A stretch of DNA of 64,000 nt from Alphaproteobacteria bacterium (GCA_963422645.2 CAXXVO010000010.1:1-64000), one strand, 5' to 3'; shown: positions 46,706-57,371, counted from the first letter of the stretch. The notes: generated by a model from the sequence alone, not told the origin. Made by a program: numbers and translations.

Positions 46706-47737
46706 ATGAAGTTCGGTCTGCTCTTCGCTCACCAGGTGCCGCCGGAGAGCGGCATTTCGAGCCAGGAAACCTACCGGGACATGCTGCGCTGCCTGCCGTG
46801 GGCAGAAGAGCTCGGCTACGTCTCCGCCTTCCAGTGCTCCCACCACATCCAGAAGGACGGTTTTTGCCCGGGCCCGCTGGTGGCGATGGCCGGCGCCGCG
46901 GCGGTCACCCAGCGGATGCGGATCGGCACGGCGGTTCTGCTGGTGCCGCTCTACGCCCCGCTCAAGCTCGCCGAGGATGTCGCGGTGATCGACAACCTCT
47001 CGGGCGGGCGCTTCGTCTTCGGCGTGGCGCCGGGGTACGTCACGCAGGAGTTCGCGGCCCACGGCGTGCCGCGGGAGGAACGCGTCGGCCGCTTTGAGGA
47101 AGCGCTCGATCTGATGGTCCAGGCCTGGACCGGGGAGCCTTTCTCCTTCGAGGGGCGCTACTACCGGGTGCCGGAGGGGCGGGTGACGCCGAAGCCGGTG
47201 CAAAGCCCGCATCCGCCCATCTGGTACGGGGTCTCTGCGCCCGGCTCTCTGCGCCGGGCGGCGGCGCGGCGCTCAGTGCAGATCATGTCGCCGCGCCACG
47301 GGCTCGCCGAGCTCGAAGCCCACTTCGAGCCATACGAAGCGGCTGCCGAGGCCGCCGGCTGGGAGATTCCGGAGCGGCCGATCATCCGCCAGGTGTTCGT
47401 CGCGCCGACCATGGCGGAGGCGGAGGCGAAGGCCGCACCTGCGGTGGACTACCTCTACCGCGAGCTCTACGGCGCTGCGTCGGCCGCCGGCGACCGGGTG
47501 CTGCGGCGGGACGACGGCAGCGTGATCGACGACCCCACCGAGGTCGCGTTCACGACCTTCAAGGACCGCTACATCATCGGCGATCCGGACTTCGCGATCC
47601 GCAGCATTCGGGACTATCAGGCGGCGGTGAACCCGAGCGAGATGATCTGCTGGATGCACATGCCGGGCGTTGCCGGCGCCGACGCAAAGGCCTCGGTCGA
47701 GCTCTTCGCCAGCGAAGTGATGCCGCACTTCCGATAG
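46706..47737 (+). CDS. LLM-class flavin-dependent oxidoreductase
   Basis: AEELGY...HH, RIGTAV..PL..P.KLAED, SGGR, PKPVQ.PHPPIW. Confidence 0.9.
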   Translation: MKFGLLFAHQVPPESGISSQETYRDMLRCLPWAEELGYVSAFQCSHHIQKDGFCPGPLVAMAGAAAVTQRMRIGTAVLLVPLYAPLKLAEDVAVIDNLSGGRFVFGVAPGYVTQEFAAHGVPREERVGRFEEALDLMVQAWTGEPFSFEGRYYRVPEGRVTPKPVQSPHPPIWYGVSAPGSLRRAAARRSVQIMSPRHGLAELEAHFEPYEAAAEAAGWEIPERPIIRQVFVAPTMAEAEAKAAPAVDYLYRELYGAASAAGDRVLRRDDGSVIDDPTEVAFTTFKDRYIIGDPDFAIRSIRDYQAAVNPSEMICWMHMPGVAGADAKASVELFASEVMPHFR

Positions 47738-47844: not shown

Positions 47845-48156
47845 ATGGAATACGCCTTGCGCGATGCCAAGGCTCACCTTTCCAAGCTCATCAGGGACGC
47901 TCAGAACGGCAAACGTGTGGTCATCACCAAGCACGGCGAGCCGGTTGTCGAACTCGTGCGCTGCGCGGGGCGGGGCGGAATCGACTTCGACAAGCTGGAA
48001 GCGGACCGCCGGCGCCTTGGGATCGAGGACGCCTCCCCGGAAGAAGCCGAGGCGATGATCGCCGCCTTTCAAGATCCGGCGCTGAGCCGCCGGGTGCTCG
48101 GACTCGAAGACAAAACAGTCATGGTCCCCGCGGTTCTGAGCCACCCCGTGGCATGA
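47845..48156 (+). CDS. Phd/YefM-family antitoxin; last codons replaced by IS110 sequence
   Basis: LRDAKAHLSKLI..AQNGKRVVITKHGEPVVEL; native end reconstructed as ...EDKE* using 56957-56962. Confidence 0.85.
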   Translation: MEYALRDAKAHLSKLIRDAQNGKRVVITKHGEPVVELVRCAGRGGIDFDKLEADRRRLGIEDASPEEAEAMIAAFQDPALSRRVLGLEDKTVMVPAVLSHPVA

Positions 48157-48222
48157 AACAGGAGCGGTTCGGCTGACGTTTTCCTTGCGCTTGCACCCAT
48201 TTGCCGTGTCAGGATGGGTATT

Positions 48223-48405
48223 GGCGGAGGTGGGGACGTGTGAGCGTCGTTATATCGGTGACGTAGTTCCCGATGACAAAACTGCTTCCGGCGGCCGGCT
48301 CCGCACCCCGTATTGTACCCGGCCCGTGGCCGTGGACGCGCGGCAAATTGCACCGCACCCGCTCGTCGGATGCGTGTTCTTCCGACCGCTGTCCCCGCCT
48401 CCACC
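48223..48405 (+). ncRNA. Predicted IS110 bridge RNA (repeated in each unit)
   Basis: Closed by a long stem GGCGGAGGTGGGGAC/GTCCCCGCCTCCACC; contains target- and donor-matching segments (see findings). Confidence 0.65.
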
Positions 48406-48467
48406 GTGGCGATGCCACGGCGTGATCGTACGCCGCCGTGGCGAGAGCGCAAATGAGGAGGAAGGCG

Positions 48468-49718
48468 ATGAAGACGGAAGGCTTGCACGTCGTCCGGCCG
48501 CGCGCGGCGGGTCTGGACGTGCACAAGATGGAGATCACCGCGACGGTTCGCCTCTGTGAGGGCGAGGGTGAGCCGGTGGTGGAGACGCGCTGCTTCGGCA
48601 CGCTGCCGAGCGGTCTGGAGGAGATGGTCGCGTGGCTGACCGGTCACGGCGTCGAGGCTGCGGTGATGGAAGGGACCGGGGTCTACTGGCAGGCGCCCTT
48701 CGCGGCCCTGGAGGCGGCCGGGCTCGAGGCGATCCTGGTGCATGCGCGTCAGGTGAAGCAGTTGAAGGGGCGCAAGACCGACGTGGCGGACAGCGTGTGG
48801 CTGGCCTGCGTGTGCCAGTTCGGGCTCTGCACGCCTTCCCACGTTCCGCCTGAGCCGTTCCGGGAGCTGCGCGCACTGAGCCGCCAGCGCCGCGTCCTGG
48901 TCAGGCAGCGCTCCGCCGTGCGCAACCGCGTGCAGAAGATCATCGACCGCGCCGGTGCGCGCATCGGCGGCATCCTCTCCGACGTCTTCGGCGTCAACGG
49001 CCGGAAGATCCTCGACGGCCTGGCGCAGGGGACGGCGCGCGAGGTCATCCTCGCCTCGCTCACCAGCCACGTTGCGAACAAGCTGGAGGGGCTCGGCGAG
49101 GCGCTCACCCTGAGCCTGGGCGACAACGACCGCTTCATGCTCAACGACCTGCTGGAGGAGCATGACGCGCTTGAGGCGCGCATCGCGTCCTACACCAGGA
49201 AGATCGACGGGCAGATGACACCGTGGGAGGAGCAGCTCCGTCTGCTGACCACCATCCCCGGCATCGACCGCACCGCCGCCTCGACCATCCTCATCGAGAT
49301 CGGCCCCGACATCGGCGTGTTCGCCTCCAAGGAGCACTTCGCCGCCTGGGCCGGGCTCTGCCCCGGCAACAACGAGAGCGGGGGCAAGCGCCGCAACGCA
49401 CGCACCCGCATGGGCTCCAAGACCCTGCGCGCCTGCCTCGTCGAGTGTGCCCACGGCGCGGCCCGAACCAAGGGGTGCCAGTTCGAGGCTCATCACCGCG
49501 CCCTCGCCGCCCGGCGCGGCTACAAGCGCGCCATCGTCGCCGGCGCTCACAAGATGCTGCGCATCATCTATGTGGTGCTCAAGACCGGCAGGCCCTACTA
49601 CGACCGCACGGCCGACTACGACGCTCTGATGGTCAAGCGCAACGCTCCTCGGTGGATCCGCATGCTCCGCCGCTACGGCTACATCGAGCCCGTAGGCGCG
49701 GAACTCAAGGCCGCCTGA
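48468..49718 (+). CDS. IS110 recombinase, copy 1
   Basis: DEDD: GLDVHK, MEGTG, KTDVADS; catalytic Ser in NNESGGK; GAGGAGG RBS. Confidence 0.95.
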   Translation: MKTEGLHVVRPRAAGLDVHKMEITATVRLCEGEGEPVVETRCFGTLPSGLEEMVAWLTGHGVEAAVMEGTGVYWQAPFAALEAAGLEAILVHARQVKQLKGRKTDVADSVWLACVCQFGLCTPSHVPPEPFRELRALSRQRRVLVRQRSAVRNRVQKIIDRAGARIGGILSDVFGVNGRKILDGLAQGTAREVILASLTSHVANKLEGLGEALTLSLGDNDRFMLNDLLEEHDALEARIASYTRKIDGQMTPWEEQLRLLTTIPGIDRTAASTILIEIGPDIGVFASKEHFAAWAGLCPGNNESGGKRRNARTRMGSKTLRACLVECAHGAARTKGCQFEAHHRALAARRGYKRAIVAGAHKMLRIIYVVLKTGRPYYDRTADYDALMVKRNAPRWIRMLRRYGYIEPVGAELKAA

Positions 49719-50235
49719 GCGGCCCGCATCTCGTCAGCCGGCTACGCGGGACCGCTTCGGACCACATCGGGGAAGTCCACCGCTCGTCTCCGCCGCGCCG
49801 ACCCTGGCGGTCTCAGCCAACGCCGTGACCTCGGGGTTGGAGCGTCACCGCGCGTCCCTCGCCAGAATCTGTTTCACGGCAAACAGTCATGGTCCCCGCG
49901 GTTCTGAGCCACCCCGTGGCATGAAACAGGAGCGGTTCGGCTGACGTTTTCCTTGCGCTTGCACCCATTTGCCGTGTCAGGATGGGTATTGGCGGAGGTG
50001 GGGACGTGTGAGCGTCGTTATATCGGTGACGTAGTTCCCGATGACAAAACTGCTTCCGGCGGCCGGCTCCGCACCCCGTATTGTACCCGGCCCGTGGCCG
50101 TGGACGCGCGGCAAATTGCACCGCACCCGCTCGTCGGATGCGTGTTCTTCCGACCGCTGTCCCCGCCTCCACCGTGGCGATGCCACGGCGTGATCGTACG
50201 CCGCCGTGGCGAGAGCGCAAATGAGGAGGAAGGCG

Positions 50236-51486
50236 ATGAAGACGGAAGGCTTGCACGTCGTCCGGCCGCGCGCGGCGGGTCTGGACGTGCACAAGATGGA
50301 GATCACCGCGACGGTTCGCCTCTGTGAGGGCGAGGGTGAGCCGGTGGTGGAGACGCGCTGCTTCGGCACGCTGCCGAGCGGTCTGGAGGAGATGGTCGCG
50401 TGGCTGACCGGTCACGGCGTCGAGGCTGCGGTGATGGAAGGGACCGGGGTCTACTGGCAGGCGCCCTTCGCGGCCCTGGAGGCGGCCGGGCTCGAGGCGA
50501 TCCTGGTGCATGCGCGTCAGGTGAAGCAGTTGAAGGGGCGCAAGACCGACGTGGCGGACAGCGTGTGGCTGGCCTGCGTGTGCCAGTTCGGGCTCTGCAC
50601 GCCTTCCCACGTTCCGCCTGAGCCGTTCCGGGAGCTGCGCGCACTGAGCCGCCAGCGCCGCGTCCTGGTCAGGCAGCGCTCCGCCGTGCGCAACCGCGTG
50701 CAGAAGATCATCGACCGCGCCGGTGCGCGCATCGGCGGCATCCTCTCCGACGTCTTCGGCGTCAACGGCCGGAAGATCCTCGACGGCCTGGCGCAGGGGA
50801 CGGCGCGCGAGGTCATCCTCGCCTCGCTCACCAGCCACGTTGCGAACAAGCTGGAGGGGCTCGGCGAGGCGCTCACCCTGAGCCTGGGCGACAACGACCG
50901 CTTCATGCTCAACGACCTGCTGGAGGAGCATGACGCGCTTGAGGCGCGCATCGCGTCCTACACCAGGAAGATCGACGGGCAGATGACACCGTGGGAGGAG
51001 CAGCTCCGTCTGCTGACCACCATCCCCGGCATCGACCGCACCGCCGCCTCGACCATCCTCATCGAGATCGGCCCCGACATCGGCGTGTTCGCCTCCAAGG
51101 AGCACTTCGCCGCCTGGGCCGGGCTCTGCCCCGGCAACAACGAGAGCGGGGGCAAGCGCCGCAACGCACGCACCCGCATGGGCTCCAAGACCCTGCGCGC
51201 CTGCCTCGTCGAGTGTGCCCACGGCGCGGCCCGAACCAAGGGGTGCCAGTTCGAGGCTCATCACCGCGCCCTCGCCGCCCGGCGCGGCTACAAGCGCGCC
51301 ATCGTCGCCGGCGCTCACAAGATGCTGCGCATCATCTATGTGGTGCTCAAGACCGGCAGGCCCTACTACGACCGCACGGCCGACTACGACGCTCTGATGG
51401 TCAAGCGCAACGCTCCTCGGTGGATCCGCATGCTCCGCCGCTACGGCTACATCGAGCCCGTAGGCGCGGAACTCAAGGCCGCCTGA
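50236..51486 (+). CDS. IS110 recombinase, copy 2
   Basis: Identical translation to copy 1. Confidence 0.93.
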   Translation: MKTEGLHVVRPRAAGLDVHKMEITATVRLCEGEGEPVVETRCFGTLPSGLEEMVAWLTGHGVEAAVMEGTGVYWQAPFAALEAAGLEAILVHARQVKQLKGRKTDVADSVWLACVCQFGLCTPSHVPPEPFRELRALSRQRRVLVRQRSAVRNRVQKIIDRAGARIGGILSDVFGVNGRKILDGLAQGTAREVILASLTSHVANKLEGLGEALTLSLGDNDRFMLNDLLEEHDALEARIASYTRKIDGQMTPWEEQLRLLTTIPGIDRTAASTILIEIGPDIGVFASKEHFAAWAGLCPGNNESGGKRRNARTRMGSKTLRACLVECAHGAARTKGCQFEAHHRALAARRGYKRAIVAGAHKMLRIIYVVLKTGRPYYDRTADYDALMVKRNAPRWIRMLRRYGYIEPVGAELKAA

Positions 51487-52003
51487 GCGGCCCGCATCTC
51501 GTCAGCCGGCTACGCGGGACCGCTTCGGACCACATCGGGGAAGTCCACCGCTCGTCTCCGCCGCGCCGACCCTGGCGGTCTCAGCCAACGCCGTGACCTC
51601 GGGGTTGGAGCGTCACCGCGCGTCCCTCGCCAGAATCTGTTTCACGGCAAACAGTCATGGTCCCCGCGGTTCTGAGCCACCCCGTGGCATGAAACAGGAG
51701 CGGTTCGGCTGACGTTTTCCTTGCGCTTGCACCCATTTGCCGTGTCAGGATGGGTATTGGCGGAGGTGGGGACGTGTGAGCGTCGTTATATCGGTGACGT
51801 AGTTCCCGATGACAAAACTGCTTCCGGCGGCCGGCTCCGCACCCCGTATTGTACCCGGCCCGTGGCCGTGGACGCGCGGCAAATTGCACCGCACCCGCTC
51901 GTCGGATGCGTGTTCTTCCGACCGCTGTCCCCGCCTCCACCGTGGCGATGCCACGGCGTGATCGTACGCCGCCGTGGCGAGAGCGCAAATGAGGAGGAAG
52001 GCG

Positions 52004-53254
52004 ATGAAGACGGAAGGCTTGCACGTCGTCCGGCCGCGCGCGGCGGGTCTGGACGTGCACAAGATGGAGATCACCGCGACGGTTCGCCTCTGTGAGGGCG
52101 AGGGTGAGCCGGTGGTGGAGACGCGCTGCTTCGGCACGCTGCCGAGCGGTCTGGAGGAGATGGTCGCGTGGCTGACCGGTCACGGCGTCGAGGCTGCGGT
52201 GATGGAAGGGACCGGGGTCTACTGGCAGGCGCCCTTCGCGGCCCTGGAGGCGGCCGGGCTCGAGGCGATCCTGGTGCATGCGCGTCAGGTGAAGCAGTTG
52301 AAGGGGCGCAAGACCGACGTGGCGGACAGCGTGTGGCTGGCCTGCGTGTGCCAGTTCGGGCTCTGCACGCCTTCCCACGTTCCGCCTGAGCCGTTCCGGG
52401 AGCTGCGCGCACTGAGCCGCCAGCGCCGCGTCCTGGTCAGGCAGCGCTCCGCCGTGCGCAACCGCGTGCAGAAGATCATCGACCGCGCCGGTGCGCGCAT
52501 CGGCGGCATCCTCTCCGACGTCTTCGGCGTCAACGGCCGGAAGATCCTCGACGGCCTGGCGCAGGGGACGGCGCGCGAGGTCATCCTCGCCTCGCTCACC
52601 AGCCACGTTGCGAACAAGCTGGAGGGGCTCGGCGAGGCGCTCACCCTGAGCCTGGGCGACAACGACCGCTTCATGCTCAACGACCTGCTGGAGGAGCATG
52701 ACGCGCTTGAGGCGCGCATCGCGTCCTACACCAGGAAGATCGACGGGCAGATGACACCGTGGGAGGAGCAGCTCCGTCTGCTGACCACCATCCCCGGCAT
52801 CGACCGCACCGCCGCCTCGACCATCCTCATCGAGATCGGCCCCGACATCGGCGTGTTCGCCTCCAAGGAGCACTTCGCCGCCTGGGCCGGGCTCTGCCCC
52901 GGCAACAACGAGAGCGGGGGCAAGCGCCGCAACGCACGCACCCGCATGGGCTCCAAGACCCTGCGCGCCTGCCTCGTCGAGTGTGCCCACGGCGCGGCCC
53001 GAACCAAGGGGTGCCAGTTCGAGGCTCATCACCGCGCCCTCGCCGCCCGGCGCGGCTACAAGCGCGCCATCGTCGCCGGCGCTCACAAGATGCTGCGCAT
53101 CATCTATGTGGTGCTCAAGACCGGCAGGCCCTACTACGACCGCACGGCCGACTACGACGCTCTGATGGTCAAGCGCAACGCTCCTCGGTGGATCCGCATG
53201 CTCCGCCGCTACGGCTACATCGAGCCCGTAGGCGCGGAACTCAAGGCCGCCTGA
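52004..53254 (+). CDS. IS110 recombinase, copy 3
   Basis: Identical translation to copy 1. Confidence 0.93.
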   Translation: MKTEGLHVVRPRAAGLDVHKMEITATVRLCEGEGEPVVETRCFGTLPSGLEEMVAWLTGHGVEAAVMEGTGVYWQAPFAALEAAGLEAILVHARQVKQLKGRKTDVADSVWLACVCQFGLCTPSHVPPEPFRELRALSRQRRVLVRQRSAVRNRVQKIIDRAGARIGGILSDVFGVNGRKILDGLAQGTAREVILASLTSHVANKLEGLGEALTLSLGDNDRFMLNDLLEEHDALEARIASYTRKIDGQMTPWEEQLRLLTTIPGIDRTAASTILIEIGPDIGVFASKEHFAAWAGLCPGNNESGGKRRNARTRMGSKTLRACLVECAHGAARTKGCQFEAHHRALAARRGYKRAIVAGAHKMLRIIYVVLKTGRPYYDRTADYDALMVKRNAPRWIRMLRRYGYIEPVGAELKAA

Positions 53255-53772
53255 GCGGCCCGCATCTCGTCAGCCGGCTACGCGGGACCGCTTCGGACCA
53301 CATCGGGGAAGTCCACCGCTCGTCTCCGCCGCGCCGACCCTGGCGGTCTCAGCCAACGCCGTGACCTCGGGGTTGGAGCGTCACCGCGCGTCCCTCGCCA
53401 GAATCTGTTTCACGGCAAAACAGTCATGGTCCCCGCGGTTCTGAGCCACCCCGTGGCATGAAACAGGAGCGGTTCGGCTGACGTTTTCCTTGCGCTTGCA
53501 CCCATTTGCCGTGTCAGGATGGGTATTGGCGGAGGTGGGGACGTGTGAGCGTCGTTATATCGGTGACGTAGTTCCCGATGACAAAACTGCTTCCGGCGGC
53601 CGGCTCCGCACCCCGTATTGTACCCGGCCCGTGGCCGTGGACGCGCGGCAAATTGCACCGCACCCGCTCGTCGGATGCGTGTTCTTCCGACCGCTGTCCC
53701 CGCCTCCACCGTGGCGATGCCACGGCGTGATCGTACGCCGCCGTGGCGAGAGCGCAAATGAGGAGGAAGGCG

Positions 53773-55023
53773 ATGAAGACGGAAGGCTTGCACGTCGTCC
53801 GGCCGCGCGCGGCGGGTCTGGACGTGCACAAGATGGAGATCACCGCGACGGTTCGCCTCTGTGAGGGCGAGGGTGAGCCGGTGGTGGAGACGCGCTGCTT
53901 CGGCACGCTGCCGAGCGGTCTGGAGGAGATGGTCGCGTGGCTGACCGGTCACGGCGTCGAGGCTGCGGTGATGGAAGGGACCGGGGTCTACTGGCAGGCG
54001 CCCTTCGCGGCCCTGGAGGCGGCCGGGCTCGAGGCGATCCTGGTGCATGCGCGTCAGGTGAAGCAGTTGAAGGGGCGCAAGACCGACGTGGCGGACAGCG
54101 TGTGGCTGGCCTGCGTGTGCCAGTTCGGGCTCTGCACGCCTTCCCACGTTCCGCCTGAGCCGTTCCGGGAGCTGCGCGCACTGAGCCGCCAGCGCCGCGT
54201 CCTGGTCAGGCAGCGCTCCGCCGTGCGCAACCGCGTGCAGAAGATCATCGACCGCGCCGGTGCGCGCATCGGCGGCATCCTCTCCGACGTCTTCGGCGTC
54301 AACGGCCGGAAGATCCTCGACGGCCTGGCGCAGGGGACGGCGCGCGAGGTCATCCTCGCCTCGCTCACCAGCCACGTTGCGAACAAGCTGGAGGGGCTCG
54401 GCGAGGCGCTCACCCTGAGCCTGGGCGACAACGACCGCTTCATGCTCAACGACCTGCTGGAGGAGCATGACGCGCTTGAGGCGCGCATCGCGTCCTACAC
54501 CAGGAAGATCGACGGGCAGATGACACCGTGGGAGGAGCAGCTCCGTCTGCTGACCACCATCCCCGGCATCGACCGCACCGCCGCCTCGACCATCCTCATC
54601 GAGATCGGCCCCGACATCGGCGTGTTCGCCTCCAAGGAGCACTTCGCCGCCTGGGCCGGGCTCTGCCCCGGCAACAACGAGAGCGGGGGCAAGCGCCGCA
54701 ACGCACGCACCCGCATGGGCTCCAAGACCCTGCGCGCCTGCCTCGTCGAGTGTGCCCACGGCGCGGCCCGAACCAAGGGGTGCCAGTTCGAGGCTCATCA
54801 CCGCGCCCTCGCCGCCCGGCGCGGCTACAAGCGCGCCATCGTCGCCGGCGCTCACAAGATGCTGCGCATCATCTATGTGGTGCTCAAGACCGGCAGGCCC
54901 TACTACGACCGCACGGCCGACTACGACGCTCTGATGGTCAAGCGCAACGCTCCTCGGTGGATCCGCATGCTCCGCCGCTACGGCTACATCGAGCCCGTAG
55001 GCGCGGAACTCAAGGCCGCCTGA
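53773..55023 (+). CDS. IS110 recombinase, copy 4
   Basis: Identical translation to copy 1. Confidence 0.93.
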   Translation: MKTEGLHVVRPRAAGLDVHKMEITATVRLCEGEGEPVVETRCFGTLPSGLEEMVAWLTGHGVEAAVMEGTGVYWQAPFAALEAAGLEAILVHARQVKQLKGRKTDVADSVWLACVCQFGLCTPSHVPPEPFRELRALSRQRRVLVRQRSAVRNRVQKIIDRAGARIGGILSDVFGVNGRKILDGLAQGTAREVILASLTSHVANKLEGLGEALTLSLGDNDRFMLNDLLEEHDALEARIASYTRKIDGQMTPWEEQLRLLTTIPGIDRTAASTILIEIGPDIGVFASKEHFAAWAGLCPGNNESGGKRRNARTRMGSKTLRACLVECAHGAARTKGCQFEAHHRALAARRGYKRAIVAGAHKMLRIIYVVLKTGRPYYDRTADYDALMVKRNAPRWIRMLRRYGYIEPVGAELKAA

Positions 55024-55541
55024 GCGGCCCGCATCTCGTCAGCCGGCTACGCGGGACCGCTTCGGACCACATCGGGGAAGTCCACCGCTCGTCTCCGCCG
55101 CGCCGACCCTGGCGGTCTCAGCCAACGCCGTGACCTCGGGGTTGGAGCGTCACCGCGCGTCCCTCGCCAGAATCTGTTTCACGGCAAAACAGTCATGGTC
55201 CCCGCGGTTCTGAGCCACCCCGTGGCATGAAACAGGAGCGGTTCGGCTGACGTTTTCCTTGCGCTTGCACCCATTTGCCGTGTCAGGATGGGTATTGGCG
55301 GAGGTGGGGACGTGTGAGCGTCGTTATATCGGTGACGTAGTTCCCGATGACAAAACTGCTTCCGGCGGCCGGCTCCGCACCCCGTATTGTACCCGGCCCG
55401 TGGCCGTGGACGCGCGGCAAATTGCACCGCACCCGCTCGTCGGATGCGTGTTCTTCCGACCGCTGTCCCCGCCTCCACCGTGGCGATGCCACGGCGTGAT
55501 CGTACGCCGCCGTGGCGAGAGCGCAAATGAGGAGGAAGGCG

Positions 55542-56792
55542 ATGAAGACGGAAGGCTTGCACGTCGTCCGGCCGCGCGCGGCGGGTCTGGACGTGCACAA
55601 GATGGAGATCACCGCGACGGTTCGCCTCTGTGAGGGCGAGGGTGAGCCGGTGGTGGAGACGCGCTGCTTCGGCACGCTGCCGAGCGGTCTGGAGGAGATG
55701 GTCGCGTGGCTGACCGGTCACGGCGTCGAGGCTGCGGTGATGGAAGGGACCGGGGTCTACTGGCAGGCGCCCTTCGCGGCCCTGGAGGCGGCCGGGCTCG
55801 AGGCGATCCTGGTGCATGCGCGTCAGGTGAAGCAGTTGAAGGGGCGCAAGACCGACGTGGCGGACAGCGTGTGGCTGGCCTGCGTGTGCCAGTTCGGGCT
55901 CTGCACGCCTTCCCACGTTCCGCCTGAGCCGTTCCGGGAGCTGCGCGCACTGAGCCGCCAGCGCCGCGTCCTGGTCAGGCAGCGCTCCGCCGTGCGCAAC
56001 CGCGTGCAGAAGATCATCGACCGCGCCGGTGCGCGCATCGGCGGCATCCTCTCCGACGTCTTCGGCGTCAACGGCCGGAAGATCCTCGACGGCCTGGCGC
56101 AGGGGACGGCGCGCGAGGTCATCCTCGCCTCGCTCACCAGCCACGTTGCGAACAAGCTGGAGGGGCTCGGCGAGGCGCTCACCCTGAGCCTGGGCGACAA
56201 CGACCGCTTCATGCTCAACGACCTGCTGGAGGAGCATGACGCGCTTGAGGCGCGCATCGCGTCCTACACCAGGAAGATCGACGGGCAGATGACACCGTGG
56301 GAGGAGCAGCTCCGTCTGCTGACCACCATCCCCGGCATCGACCGCACCGCCGCCTCGACCATCCTCATCGAGATCGGCCCCGACATCGGCGTGTTCGCCT
56401 CCAAGGAGCACTTCGCCGCCTGGGCCGGGCTCTGCCCCGGCAACAACGAGAGCGGGGGCAAGCGCCGCAACGCACGCACCCGCATGGGCTCCAAGACCCT
56501 GCGCGCCTGCCTCGTCGAGTGTGCCCACGGCGCGGCCCGAACCAAGGGGTGCCAGTTCGAGGCTCATCACCGCGCCCTCGCCGCCCGGCGCGGCTACAAG
56601 CGCGCCATCGTCGCCGGCGCTCACAAGATGCTGCGCATCATCTATGTGGTGCTCAAGACCGGCAGGCCCTACTACGACCGCACGGCCGACTACGACGCTC
56701 TGATGGTCAAGCGCAACGCTCCTCGGTGGATCCGCATGCTCCGCCGCTACGGCTACATCGAGCCCGTAGGCGCGGAACTCAAGGCCGCCTGA
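55542..56792 (+). CDS. IS110 recombinase, copy 5
   Basis: Identical translation to copy 1. Confidence 0.93.
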   Translation: MKTEGLHVVRPRAAGLDVHKMEITATVRLCEGEGEPVVETRCFGTLPSGLEEMVAWLTGHGVEAAVMEGTGVYWQAPFAALEAAGLEAILVHARQVKQLKGRKTDVADSVWLACVCQFGLCTPSHVPPEPFRELRALSRQRRVLVRQRSAVRNRVQKIIDRAGARIGGILSDVFGVNGRKILDGLAQGTAREVILASLTSHVANKLEGLGEALTLSLGDNDRFMLNDLLEEHDALEARIASYTRKIDGQMTPWEEQLRLLTTIPGIDRTAASTILIEIGPDIGVFASKEHFAAWAGLCPGNNESGGKRRNARTRMGSKTLRACLVECAHGAARTKGCQFEAHHRALAARRGYKRAIVAGAHKMLRIIYVVLKTGRPYYDRTADYDALMVKRNAPRWIRMLRRYGYIEPVGAELKAA

Positions 56793-56975
56793 GCGGCCCG
56801 CATCTCGTCAGCCGGCTACGCGGGACCGCTTCGGACCACATCGGGGAAGTCCACCGCTCGTCTCCGCCGCGCCGACCCTGGCGGTCTCAGCCAACGCCGT
56901 GACCTCGGGGTTGGAGCGTCACCGCGCGTCCCTCGCCAGAATCTGTTTCACGGCAAGAATAGCGGCCGAACACCG

Positions 56976-57371
56976 ATGCGCGTCCTTCTCGATACGTCAT
57001 ACCTCTATAAGCTCATGCGGGCCCATGGTTGGATTTCCGAGCTGGAGCGTCGGTTCTTCGACACGTGGGAGGCACGGCTCTACGTGAGCGCCGTGTCGAT
57101 CTGGGAGATGCGCCTCAAGTTTCGCGCCATACATCCGTCCGGCGAGCGCAAGAGCCCTTACGATCCGAACGATGTGGTCGCCGCGCTCGAACGGCAGGGG
57201 GTGACGTTCCTGACCATGACCGCGCGGCACGCCGCGTGCGATCTCGAGACCCCAATTCCTCACAAGGACCCGTTCGACGAGCTTCTTCTGGTGCAGGCCC
57301 AGGAAGAGGGGCTAAAACTCCTCACCGACGATCGTCGACTCATCGGGCACCCCCTGACCATCACGGCATAG
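56976..57371 (+). CDS. vapC: PIN-domain VapC-family toxin
   Basis: [26 protein letters not shown]. Confidence 0.9.

Follow-up and report, generated by a model that had tools for sequence, protein, structure and literature searches.

The window analyzed here is a 64,000-nucleotide (nt) stretch of DNA (Alphaproteobacteria bacterium, GCA_963422645.2 CAXXVO010000010.1:1-64000), which is contig C11 of a 5.9-Mb source genome (G000; 23 contigs, contamination score 8.48%). Between positions 48115 and 56954, inside a toxin-antitoxin locus, it holds five copies of one IS110-family insertion sequence (IS), which we call IS-A, joined head to tail at a single site. There is a high probability that this array is real, and it is fairly probable that it represents a genuine chromosomal array of a recently active, bridge-RNA-guided IS110 element whose seeding was driven by the element's own recombinase. 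The source genome contains 47 exact copies of IS-A at 36 sites, six of which are arrays (x5, x3, x3, x2, x2, and x2), and the occupied site in the window keeps its whole match to the predicted guide at the left junction.

Five identical IS110-family units in one array

An earlier note on this DNA, made from the sequence alone, had described five complete head-to-tail IS110 units at one site with an extra A at the last two junctions, and sequence comparison confirms this description. A repeat search of the window placed the five direct copies at start-to-start spacings of 1768, 1768, 1769, and 1769, and a script comparison found zero letter differences among the five 1766-bp units (ACAGTC…CACGGC). 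Tandem Repeats Finder, for which the longest period considered was 500, returned 0 rows for the array. The only variation within the array is the length of the A run where one unit meets the next: junctions 1 and 2 read CACGGC-AAA-CAGTC (3A), and junctions 3 and 4 read CACGGC-AAAA-CAGTC (4A). The left junction has the sequence GAAGACAAAACAGTC and the right junction has the sequence CACGGCAAGAATAG. The features of the array are as follows:

48109..48116, + strand, left junction GACA-AA-AC: left target (LT) GACA, core AA at 48113-48114, then the first element bases
48115..49880, + strand, IS-A unit 1: 1766 bp, ACAGTC…CACGGC, no terminal inverted repeats
48468..49718, + strand, IS110-family recombinase of unit 1, 416 amino acids (aa): Pfam PF01548, E=1.9e-23, residues 24-171; PF02371, E=4.6e-21, residues 268-352
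49881..49882, + strand, internal junction 1, spacer AA (3A): identical to the expected circle/donor junction
49883..51648, + strand, IS-A unit 2 (repeat search and script comparison)
51649..51650, + strand, internal junction 2, spacer AA (3A), read from the sequence
51651..53416, + strand, IS-A unit 3 (repeat search and script comparison)
53417..53419, + strand, internal junction 3, spacer AAA (4A); a 4A-form contig also occurs in run X15
53420..55185, + strand, IS-A unit 4 (repeat search and script comparison)
55186..55188, + strand, internal junction 4, spacer AAA (4A), read from the sequence
55189..56954, + strand, IS-A unit 5 (repeat search and script comparison)
50236-51486, 52004-53254, 53773-55023, and 55542-56792, + strand, recombinase copies in units 2-5 (open reading frame, ORF, search)
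56955..56962, + strand, right junction: core AA, then GAATAG (last native antitoxin codon and stop TAG)

Each unit has one long ORF, whose predicted product combines the Pfam domains DEDD_Tnp_IS110 and Transposase_20. It aligns to the IS621 recombinase (chain 8wt6_A, phmmer E=6.3e-16) over two stretches, with MEGTG, KTDVAD, and NESG in IS-A facing IEATG, KTDTVD, and YESG in IS621. The catalytic residues named for IS621 are D11, E60, D102, D105, and S241 (PMC11208158); in the comparison the first catalytic Asp falls outside the IS621-aligned stretch, and the residue numbering was counted by hand and is offset by the construct. Comparison of the left end with the reverse-complemented right end gave at most 11/30 matches at any offset, that is, no terminal inverted repeats. 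The Pfam domains and the IS621 alignment thus agree with the earlier reading of the units as full IS110 elements: judged by these features, they are complete members of the family, and IS-A appears to carry an intact DEDD/Ser recombinase. Contigs of several runs diverge from the element inside the recombinase ORF, at window positions 48939 and 49271, and the diverging tail at 49271 matches contig C15 of the source genome; these contigs could be related IS110 copies or chimeric elements.

Across the source genome no IS-A fragments were found, each of the 47 copies has unique flanking DNA, and contig ends never fall within a copy. The internal A runs are 3, 3, 4, and 4 in the x5 array described above, 4 and 3 in the x3 array on C10, 3 and 3 in the x3 array on C16, and 4, 3, and 4 in the x2 arrays on C5, C8, and again C8. 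As a control, we considered an element of the IS66 family, which has 92 full-length copies (99-100% identity) and one head-to-tail pair. Arrays occupy 6/36 sites for IS-A vs 1/91 for the IS66-like element (Fisher P=0.002), and the arrays are therefore a property of IS-A and not of repeats in this assembly; the adjacency of copies in the six arrays cannot arise by chance. The IS66-like pair (G000:C9:406466-410249) has the 8-bp target duplication GAGAATGA as its spacer. The genome is heavily IS-laden, a further example of an IS66-family copy being locus L149 (C3:11800-14800).

One additional IS-A copy (G000:C16:23523-25256) has a 32-bp deletion between CCGTGGCGA direct repeats, by which a hairpin between the RNA region and the recombinase ribosome-binding site is lost. 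It lies 1.9 kb upstream of the x3 array on C16, at a normal GACA-AA-A target.

The sequencing reads were seen as k=31 contigs over the flank, unit 1, and junction 1, a view that gives no copy number and in which circles and chromosomal junctions look alike. A contig was called bridging only if it had 31 letters on each side of a junction, and depths are not copy numbers. Runs X15 and X16 each have one flank contig that reaches 24 letters into the element, as far as a k=31 graph can enter a repeat, and the contigs of X18 and X19 leave the last 20-100 bases before the left junction uncovered. The depths of element body and flank were 139/3.9 in X15, 743/14 in X16, ~2400-3400/43 in X18, and 194/7.5 in X19, and the bin beyond the junction stood at 5.7x, 8.3x, 9.8x, and 0.5x the flank depth, respectively. 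A 52-letter contig in X15 (depth 19, ~5x flank) crosses the junction with one letter beyond the 3A reference, and the assembly has five 4A junctions, close to this ratio. Circles could contribute to the junction depth; several junctions per genome would be an unusually high circle level.

The earlier note had left the 3A/4A difference open between register slippage in the A tract and homopolymer error. Across the 47 copies, 23 homopolymer runs in each (1081 runs) showed zero length differences, and the extra A is present at 5/11 internal junctions and at none of the 8 checkable outer junction pairs (Fisher P=0.045). The extra A is therefore real and specific to unit-to-unit junctions. Together with the 4A contig in X15, the unchanged homopolymer runs make sequencing error very unlikely, and a one-base ambiguity of register within the left junction's A4 run is the likeliest candidate for the origin of the 4A form. 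Alternatively, a heritable +A variant copied by unequal exchange is possible.

Guides, targets, and a related element

The 5′ non-coding part of each unit resembles a bridge RNA, in which two guide positions were placed in unit 1:

48200..48420, + strand, bridge-RNA-like non-coding region (16-member alignment), repeated at +1768, +3536, +5305, and +7074
48275..48281, + strand, left target guide (LTG) GACAAAA: same sense as LT, core, and position +1 (covariation)
48341..48347, + strand, putative left donor guide (LDG) CGGCAAA: same sense as the right end CGGC, core AA, and A; 66 nt after the LTG

According to the strand rule described in the text for bridge RNAs, the LTG has the same sense as LT plus core and the LDG the same sense as the left donor (LD) plus core (Durrant 2024, PMC11208160). 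The comparison of guides drew on 57 related loci found in public genomes, to which IS-A and a further element, IS-B, were added (58 sequences examined). The LTG scaffold CC(C/U)GA, followed by 4-5 variable nt and AAAC(U/C)G, was present in 31/58 sequences (AAGCCUG in IS-B). When a guide word is defined as the variable 4 nt plus the next 3 letters, there are 15 distinct words, 11 of which recur exactly 100-200 nt upstream, at the element's own left boundary before a …CATGG left-end motif; random reassignment of guides to loci gives a mean of 0.12 recurring words (maximum 2 in 1000 permutations). The LDG words CGGC, CAGC, and CAAC (+AA) match their own right ends at ~23/27 loci, as judged by eye for only three words and with no permutation control, and the distance from the LTG to the LDG is 66-70 nt at almost every locus, L112 being an exception with 61 nt. 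In an alignment of 16 family members, 31 consensus pairs were predicted, 8 of them with compensatory changes, and the predicted fold places both same-sense guides just 3′ of a hairpin. No Rfam family reached the gathering score, the sub-threshold match being a P10 sRNA inside the recombinase ORF (22.1 bits vs 37). The conserved ACUG that follows the LTG was considered as a left-end guide and rejected: it is kept whatever the element's left end, and it pairs with an upstream strand as part of a helix that has compensatory changes at 2 pairs.

The earlier note had also found that the left junction matches a segment of the element itself at 11/12 (CGATGACAAAAC, at 48271-48282 in unit 1) and had taken this to suggest repeated re-targeting of the occupied site. 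The match is present and contains the LTG. The covariation identifies it as the ordinary LTG of the predicted bridge RNA, so that it is no special sign of re-targeting. The internal junctions, which the same note had called permanent donor sites, fit that role: each has the expected circle-junction sequence and is matched by the putative LDG word CGGCAAA. What is unusual in IS-A is the shortness of the guide and the small weight of the target's right side. A logo of 32 distinct flank pairs gives LT-4 to LT-1 as G16/A8, A28, C32, and A31, core AA, and right target (RT) position +1 as A23/G8, in short (G/A)ACA-AA-(A/G), with almost no information to the right of RT+1 across the 32 distinct sites. 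The left junction of the array, GACA-AA-A, still matches this consensus after insertion, and matches the LTG word at 8/8 positions. Because the guide appears to read only ~4 nt and the AA(A) core, the left junction stays a consensus target.

Natural empty sites are available within the same genome. A 2.2-kb repeat encoding a predicted large serine recombinase (Resolvase, Recombinase, and Zn ribbon domains; L148) has five copies, two of which are empty (ACTCAC-AAAA-TCCCGG; C6 and C8:634063) and three of which are occupied at one point, ~35 nt upstream of the serine recombinase start, by one, two, and three units of IS-A (C8:727930, C10:44761, C19:33969, without regard to order). A second repeat is occupied by IS-A three times and empty many times. 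The A counts balance at 8 checkable sites if the donor junction has three As and the core is a 2-nt AA. At a ninth site (C6:66372-68137), IS-A lies inside an IS66-family copy and the right junction lacks 3-4 bases, which makes this an imprecise or off-target event; unoccupied copies of the site read GGACAAGGATATCG. Three single-copy sites were compared as whole loci with five relatives for empty sites and contiguous flanks; the DNA adjoining the element was repetitive or not conserved there, and the comparison gave nothing usable. Thirteen flank probes taken from loose ends gave 4 that are flanks of IS-A sites in the source genome, 7 without a match, 1 outside IS-A sites, and 1 too short for a specific match (6 matches); this outcome hints at no more than site polymorphism between samples.

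A closed, single-contig genome of the same genus (G004) carries IS-B, a different IS110-family element of 1704 bp with a shared AGC at its junctions, the LTG UGUUAAGC, and the target TGTTA-AG-C. The census in this genome comprises 34 clusters, with 11 single copies, 7 pure arrays (x3, x2, x2, x2, x3, x2, and x2), and complex arrays of up to 5 full and 2 partial copies; the arrangement [1-142][1-1704][138-1704] recurs. One tandem junction has an extra AG. Ordinary IS-B targets have a longer left motif, TGTTGTTA-AGC, in ~20/24 flanks, and a distal TTGACCCC on the right in many. In the nested arrangement, the inner copy lies exactly at the LTG-coding DNA of the outer copy (…GATGTTA-AGC|CTCCACC… and …CTCAAG|AGC-CTGGTCC…), which shows, on the genome sequence, that LT plus core is enough for insertion in the clade of IS-A and IS-B. 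An example of nesting is locus L056 (G004:C1:3790000-3797000, reverse strand).

We also observed a 235-bp IS-B derivative, [1-141][1610-1704], both solo and in tandem with full copies. It occurs at G004:C1:701581-701811 and 705223-705453 and adjoins full copies at 770425, 2176545, and 4770660; its internal deletion has an endpoint that falls at the guide-coding pseudo-target, and it looks like a non-autonomous mini-element. Among related elements in other metagenome-assembled genomes, short duplications of the right end alone were seen at L081 (15 bp) and L105 (~11 bp), and at L072 another right end lies at a distance of 147 bp. Such structures look like the repeat units of LD alone that a 2026 preprint on IS110 elements describes.

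Routes by which the arrays could form

We favor the view that the element's own recombinase seeded the array by acting again on a site already occupied. Because the left junction keeps LT, core, and A and the LTG matches it at all eight positions, an excised circle could re-enter there, and such a reaction would give exactly the observed 3A junction. Alternatively, seeding might proceed by a reaction of the excision type that joins one sister chromosome's left junction to the right junction on its sister, yielding a dimer and an empty site. Arrays could then grow or shrink when identical units, or donor junctions, undergo unequal exchange with one another, in a RecA-dependent or RNA-guided manner, and copy-number change of this kind would explain the over-represented large arrays.

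Several results weigh against this favored reading of a genuine, recombinase-seeded array. The right target guide (RTG) and right donor guide (RDG) could not be placed in the consensus fold, and a complementarity scan for the RDG across 10 family members gave no consistent position; shuffled sequences fold as stably as the IS-A left end when it is folded as a single sequence (z=-0.17); and a scan for terminators and for promoters of the sigma-70 type only, across junction 1 (49650-50300), returned 0 and 0, and so lends a junction promoter of that type no support. In other genomes, an adjacent copy was found at only 1/57 related loci, so that arrays are not a general trait of the clade. None of the k=31 contigs extends 31 letters to each side of a junction, the X15 body/flank ratio of ~36 fits 36 single sites as well as 47 copies, and X15 may be the source sample and hence not independent. 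The 4A form would not be expected from a reaction that stays in register. Finally, IS-A's own LTG-coding word, GACAAAAC, was never used as a target: 0/47 copies lie there vs 11 tandem junctions, a difference with P ~1e-4 under equal use of the two kinds of site and P=0.036 when set beside the ~5:14 ratio of IS-B (hand arithmetic).

This last result bears directly on the repeated re-targeting that the earlier note had suggested. With the guide-coding word unhit (0 vs 11), re-targeting through LT and core alone is insufficient. The sizes of the arrays are also over-dispersed: were the 11 extra copies spread uniformly over the 36 sites, an x5 array would not be expected (P=0.006; variance test P=0.0008), and growth in proportion to copy number fits the array sizes better (P=0.07) than uniform re-targeting does (P=0.006). 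As a sole mechanism, repeated re-targeting therefore finds no support. The unhit guide word and the over-dispersed sizes point to reactions that involve element ends or whole units, for which the candidates would be a left junction of one sister with a right junction of the other, donor junction with donor junction, and RecA-dependent unequal crossing-over. RNA-guided and RecA-driven growth are not separable from these data, and we infer the mechanism only at this level.

A broader idea, which we hold tentatively and think somewhat more likely to fail than to stand, is that the clade targets by half-site only, so that recognition would need just the core and ~4 nt of left target, and a right-target guide would be absent. 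Insertion would then regenerate the element's own target at the left junction, and the guide-coding DNA would itself be a target, making the elements self-concatenating (the arrays) and self-nesting (as seen for IS-B in G004). Permanent, complete donor sites in the chromosome could then drive RNA-guided copy-number changes and, where genomes are IS-laden, larger rearrangements, and the 3A and 4A junctions would record a reaction that is less register-faithful on occupied than on naive targets.

The strongest competing explanation, although unlikely, is that the arrays are real and were made wholly by homologous recombination: the bridge RNA would only make circles, an excised circle would recombine with a resident copy across 1.77 kb of perfect homology, and RecA-dependent unequal crossing-over between sister chromatids would follow. 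The products would be the same, each internal junction being a circle junction. The 100% identity of the units, array sizes that fit copy-number-dependent growth, the zero IS-A insertions in the guide-coding pseudo-target, and the rarity of adjacent copies elsewhere (1/57 loci) are all in keeping with it. However, it leaves unexplained why the extra A is present at 5/11 internal junctions when 8/8 outer pairs balance with a 3A donor (P=0.045), and why an IS66-like element with 92 near-identical copies forms only one head-to-tail pair (P=0.002). The IS-B copies nested at the guide-coding site represent site-specific re-use of LT plus core within the clade. In addition, tandem repeats of the element CazIS110-1 arose in E. 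coli, whatever the part of RecA in that product.

It is improbable that each array entered in one step as a multimeric circle, from dimer to pentamer, produced by rolling-circle or copy-out over-replication or by circle-by-circle donor recombination. Such an origin would account for arrays at new sites without repeated hits and for 3A and 4A junctions mixed inside one molecule, and copy-out models for IS110 have been proposed (10.1101/2025.10.25.684509; 10.64898/2026.08.31.748434). No multimeric circle was observed in this analysis, however, the pentamer is an ad hoc assumption, and the same serine-recombinase-repeat target holds x1, x2, and x3, suggesting stepwise change.

An assembly artefact, in which a single chromosomal copy acquired extra units from mis-assembled circles or dispersed copies and the 3A/4A difference is consensus noise, is very improbable: the lack of a spanning read (k=31 contigs only), the X15 depth ratio of ~36, equal to the number of sites, and the contamination score of 8.48% are compatible with it, but it is opposed by the unique flanks of all 47 copies with no contig end in a copy, the ordered and differing junctions of six arrays, the 1081 homopolymer runs without length error, junction words at several times flank depth in three runs (with the 4A contig at depth 19 vs 3.9 for the flank), the same architecture for another IS110 element in a closed single-contig relative, and the absence of comparable array inflation in the IS66-like control.

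The toxin-antitoxin host locus and relation to known systems

The array separates two genes of a predicted toxin-antitoxin pair:

47845..48156, + strand, Phd/YefM-type antitoxin gene (Pfam PF02604, E=2.1e-10), native part to 48114
56976..57371, + strand, PIN-domain (VapC-like) toxin gene (Pfam PF01850, E=2.1e-10), intact 131-aa ORF

In translation, a 13-residue tail encoded by the left end of the IS (…LEDK-TVMVPAVLSHPVA*) stands in place of the antitoxin's last native codon and stop, and the PIN toxin gene, followed downstream by a Glu/Gln-tRNA synthetase gene, now lies 8.8 kb from its antitoxin. The native stop TAG is 5 bp beyond the insertion point. The empty site that the earlier note had reconstructed (GAAGACA-AA-GAATAG) holds in that the antitoxin stop is restored and the antitoxin-PIN pair is uninterrupted in 6/6 relatives that hold the pair; the closest relative (L032, 97% identity) reads GAAGACA-AG-GAATAG (codons GAA GAC AAG GAA TAG), with core AG and not AA. 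Empty sites in L032 and in the C10 and C8 paralogues of the C5:486197 site of the source genome have core AG, in contrast to the AA found on either side of the element at the occupied sites. A core mismatch may be tolerated, with conversion to the donor core, or strains may be polymorphic. Upstream of window position 47667, in the gap between a luciferase-like monooxygenase gene and the antitoxin gene, contigs of X16, X18, and X19 share the same unlike sequence, and other samples thus have a different left neighbor of the toxin-antitoxin pair. The array changes the antitoxin C-terminus and parts antitoxin from toxin, so that the pair is probably uncoupled or silenced; the consequence for the locus itself is ordinary.

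Of the characterized bridge recombinases of the IS621/IS110 type (Durrant 2024, PMC11208160; Hiraizumi 2024, PMC11208158), IS621 as described in those texts shares with IS-A the DEDD (RuvC-like) and Tnp domains, a Ser motif that lines up in the alignment, a non-coding RNA upstream of the recombinase, guides of the same sense as LT plus core and LD plus core, a dinucleotide core common to target and donor, the lack of inverted repeats, and an expected donor site formed by the junction of right end, core, and left end. The two differ in that IS-A appears to read ~4 nt of LT plus AA(A), whereas the requirement of IS621, by the same accounts, is ~7 nt of LT together with 4 nt or more of RT. In IS-A no RTG was found, the logo has nearly no information on the right side, and there is no Rfam match; the recombinases have low identity (E=6e-16 over two stretches). 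Other published work describes donor-only "half-match" recognition that can drive IS621 reactions, and excision substrates that bind across both loops.

The two elements provide a natural data set, with 36 sites and 34 clusters, natural empty sites, and one closed genome. They bear on the re-use of occupied sites by bridge-RNA elements, which current models exclude since insertion splits the target. If short left-only guides suffice, this would matter for the off-target and concatemer risk of reprogrammed bridge recombinases, and it would suggest that a hidden target may lie in guide-coding DNA. More generally for genomes, the arrays offer one way in which IS bursts build rows of ready-made donor sites.

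Head-to-tail (IS)2 dimers of the IS30, IS21, and IS911 types have abutted ends that form a reactive donor junction in further transposition. Unlike IS-A, they depend on DDE transposases, have a spacer and inverted-repeat ends, and are unstable; the sole pair of this kind in the source genome is the IS66-like dimer at G000:C9:406466. IS117, from a different host phylum, is a member of the IS110 family and moves through a circle. Tandem insertions of IS117 (the Streptomyces coelicolor "minicircle") were reported by Smokvina et al. (1994, Mol Microbiol 12:459, as cited in PMC2194683), and, going by that citation, the element resembles IS-A in its tandem insertions. In E. coli, the CazIS110-1 recombinase and bridge RNA (bRNA) gave tandem cargo repeats in 3/96 colonies (bioRxiv 10.1101/2025.10.25.684509). 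As in IS-A, the tandem repeat junction there restores the selectable donor circle sequence. According to the text of that preprint, those repeats were transient and reverted under continued induction, whereas IS-A arrays reach 5 units and are fixed in the assembly at six sites.

The 2026 preprint presents multi-copy head-to-tail IS110 loci at one chromosomal site (Fig. 4C, n=437) and concludes in its text that target immunity is absent from IS110 and that expansion draws on the recombination system resident at the locus. Tandem IS110 arrays are thus already known from IS117 in 1994 and from this preprint, as far as the texts describe them, and the IS-A and IS-B loci fit that kind. Our literature search, to which figures and supplements did not belong, returned no account of complete donor pairs, nested hits on guide-coding DNA, or junction-length dimorphism, and for IS110, outside supplements, no report of insertion into guide-coding DNA or of a regenerated target. 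Complete donor pairs at internal boundaries, nested hits on IS-B guide-coding DNA, and the dimorphism in junction length may therefore be new, as may the regenerated target, which the text of the 2026 preprint says does not occur. The examples in that preprint may include arrays like those of IS-A, its figures and supplements lying outside the comparison. Compared with the loci as its text describes them, the IS-A array differs in that its left junction still equals the target consensus and each internal boundary is a complete donor of LD, core, and right donor (RD).

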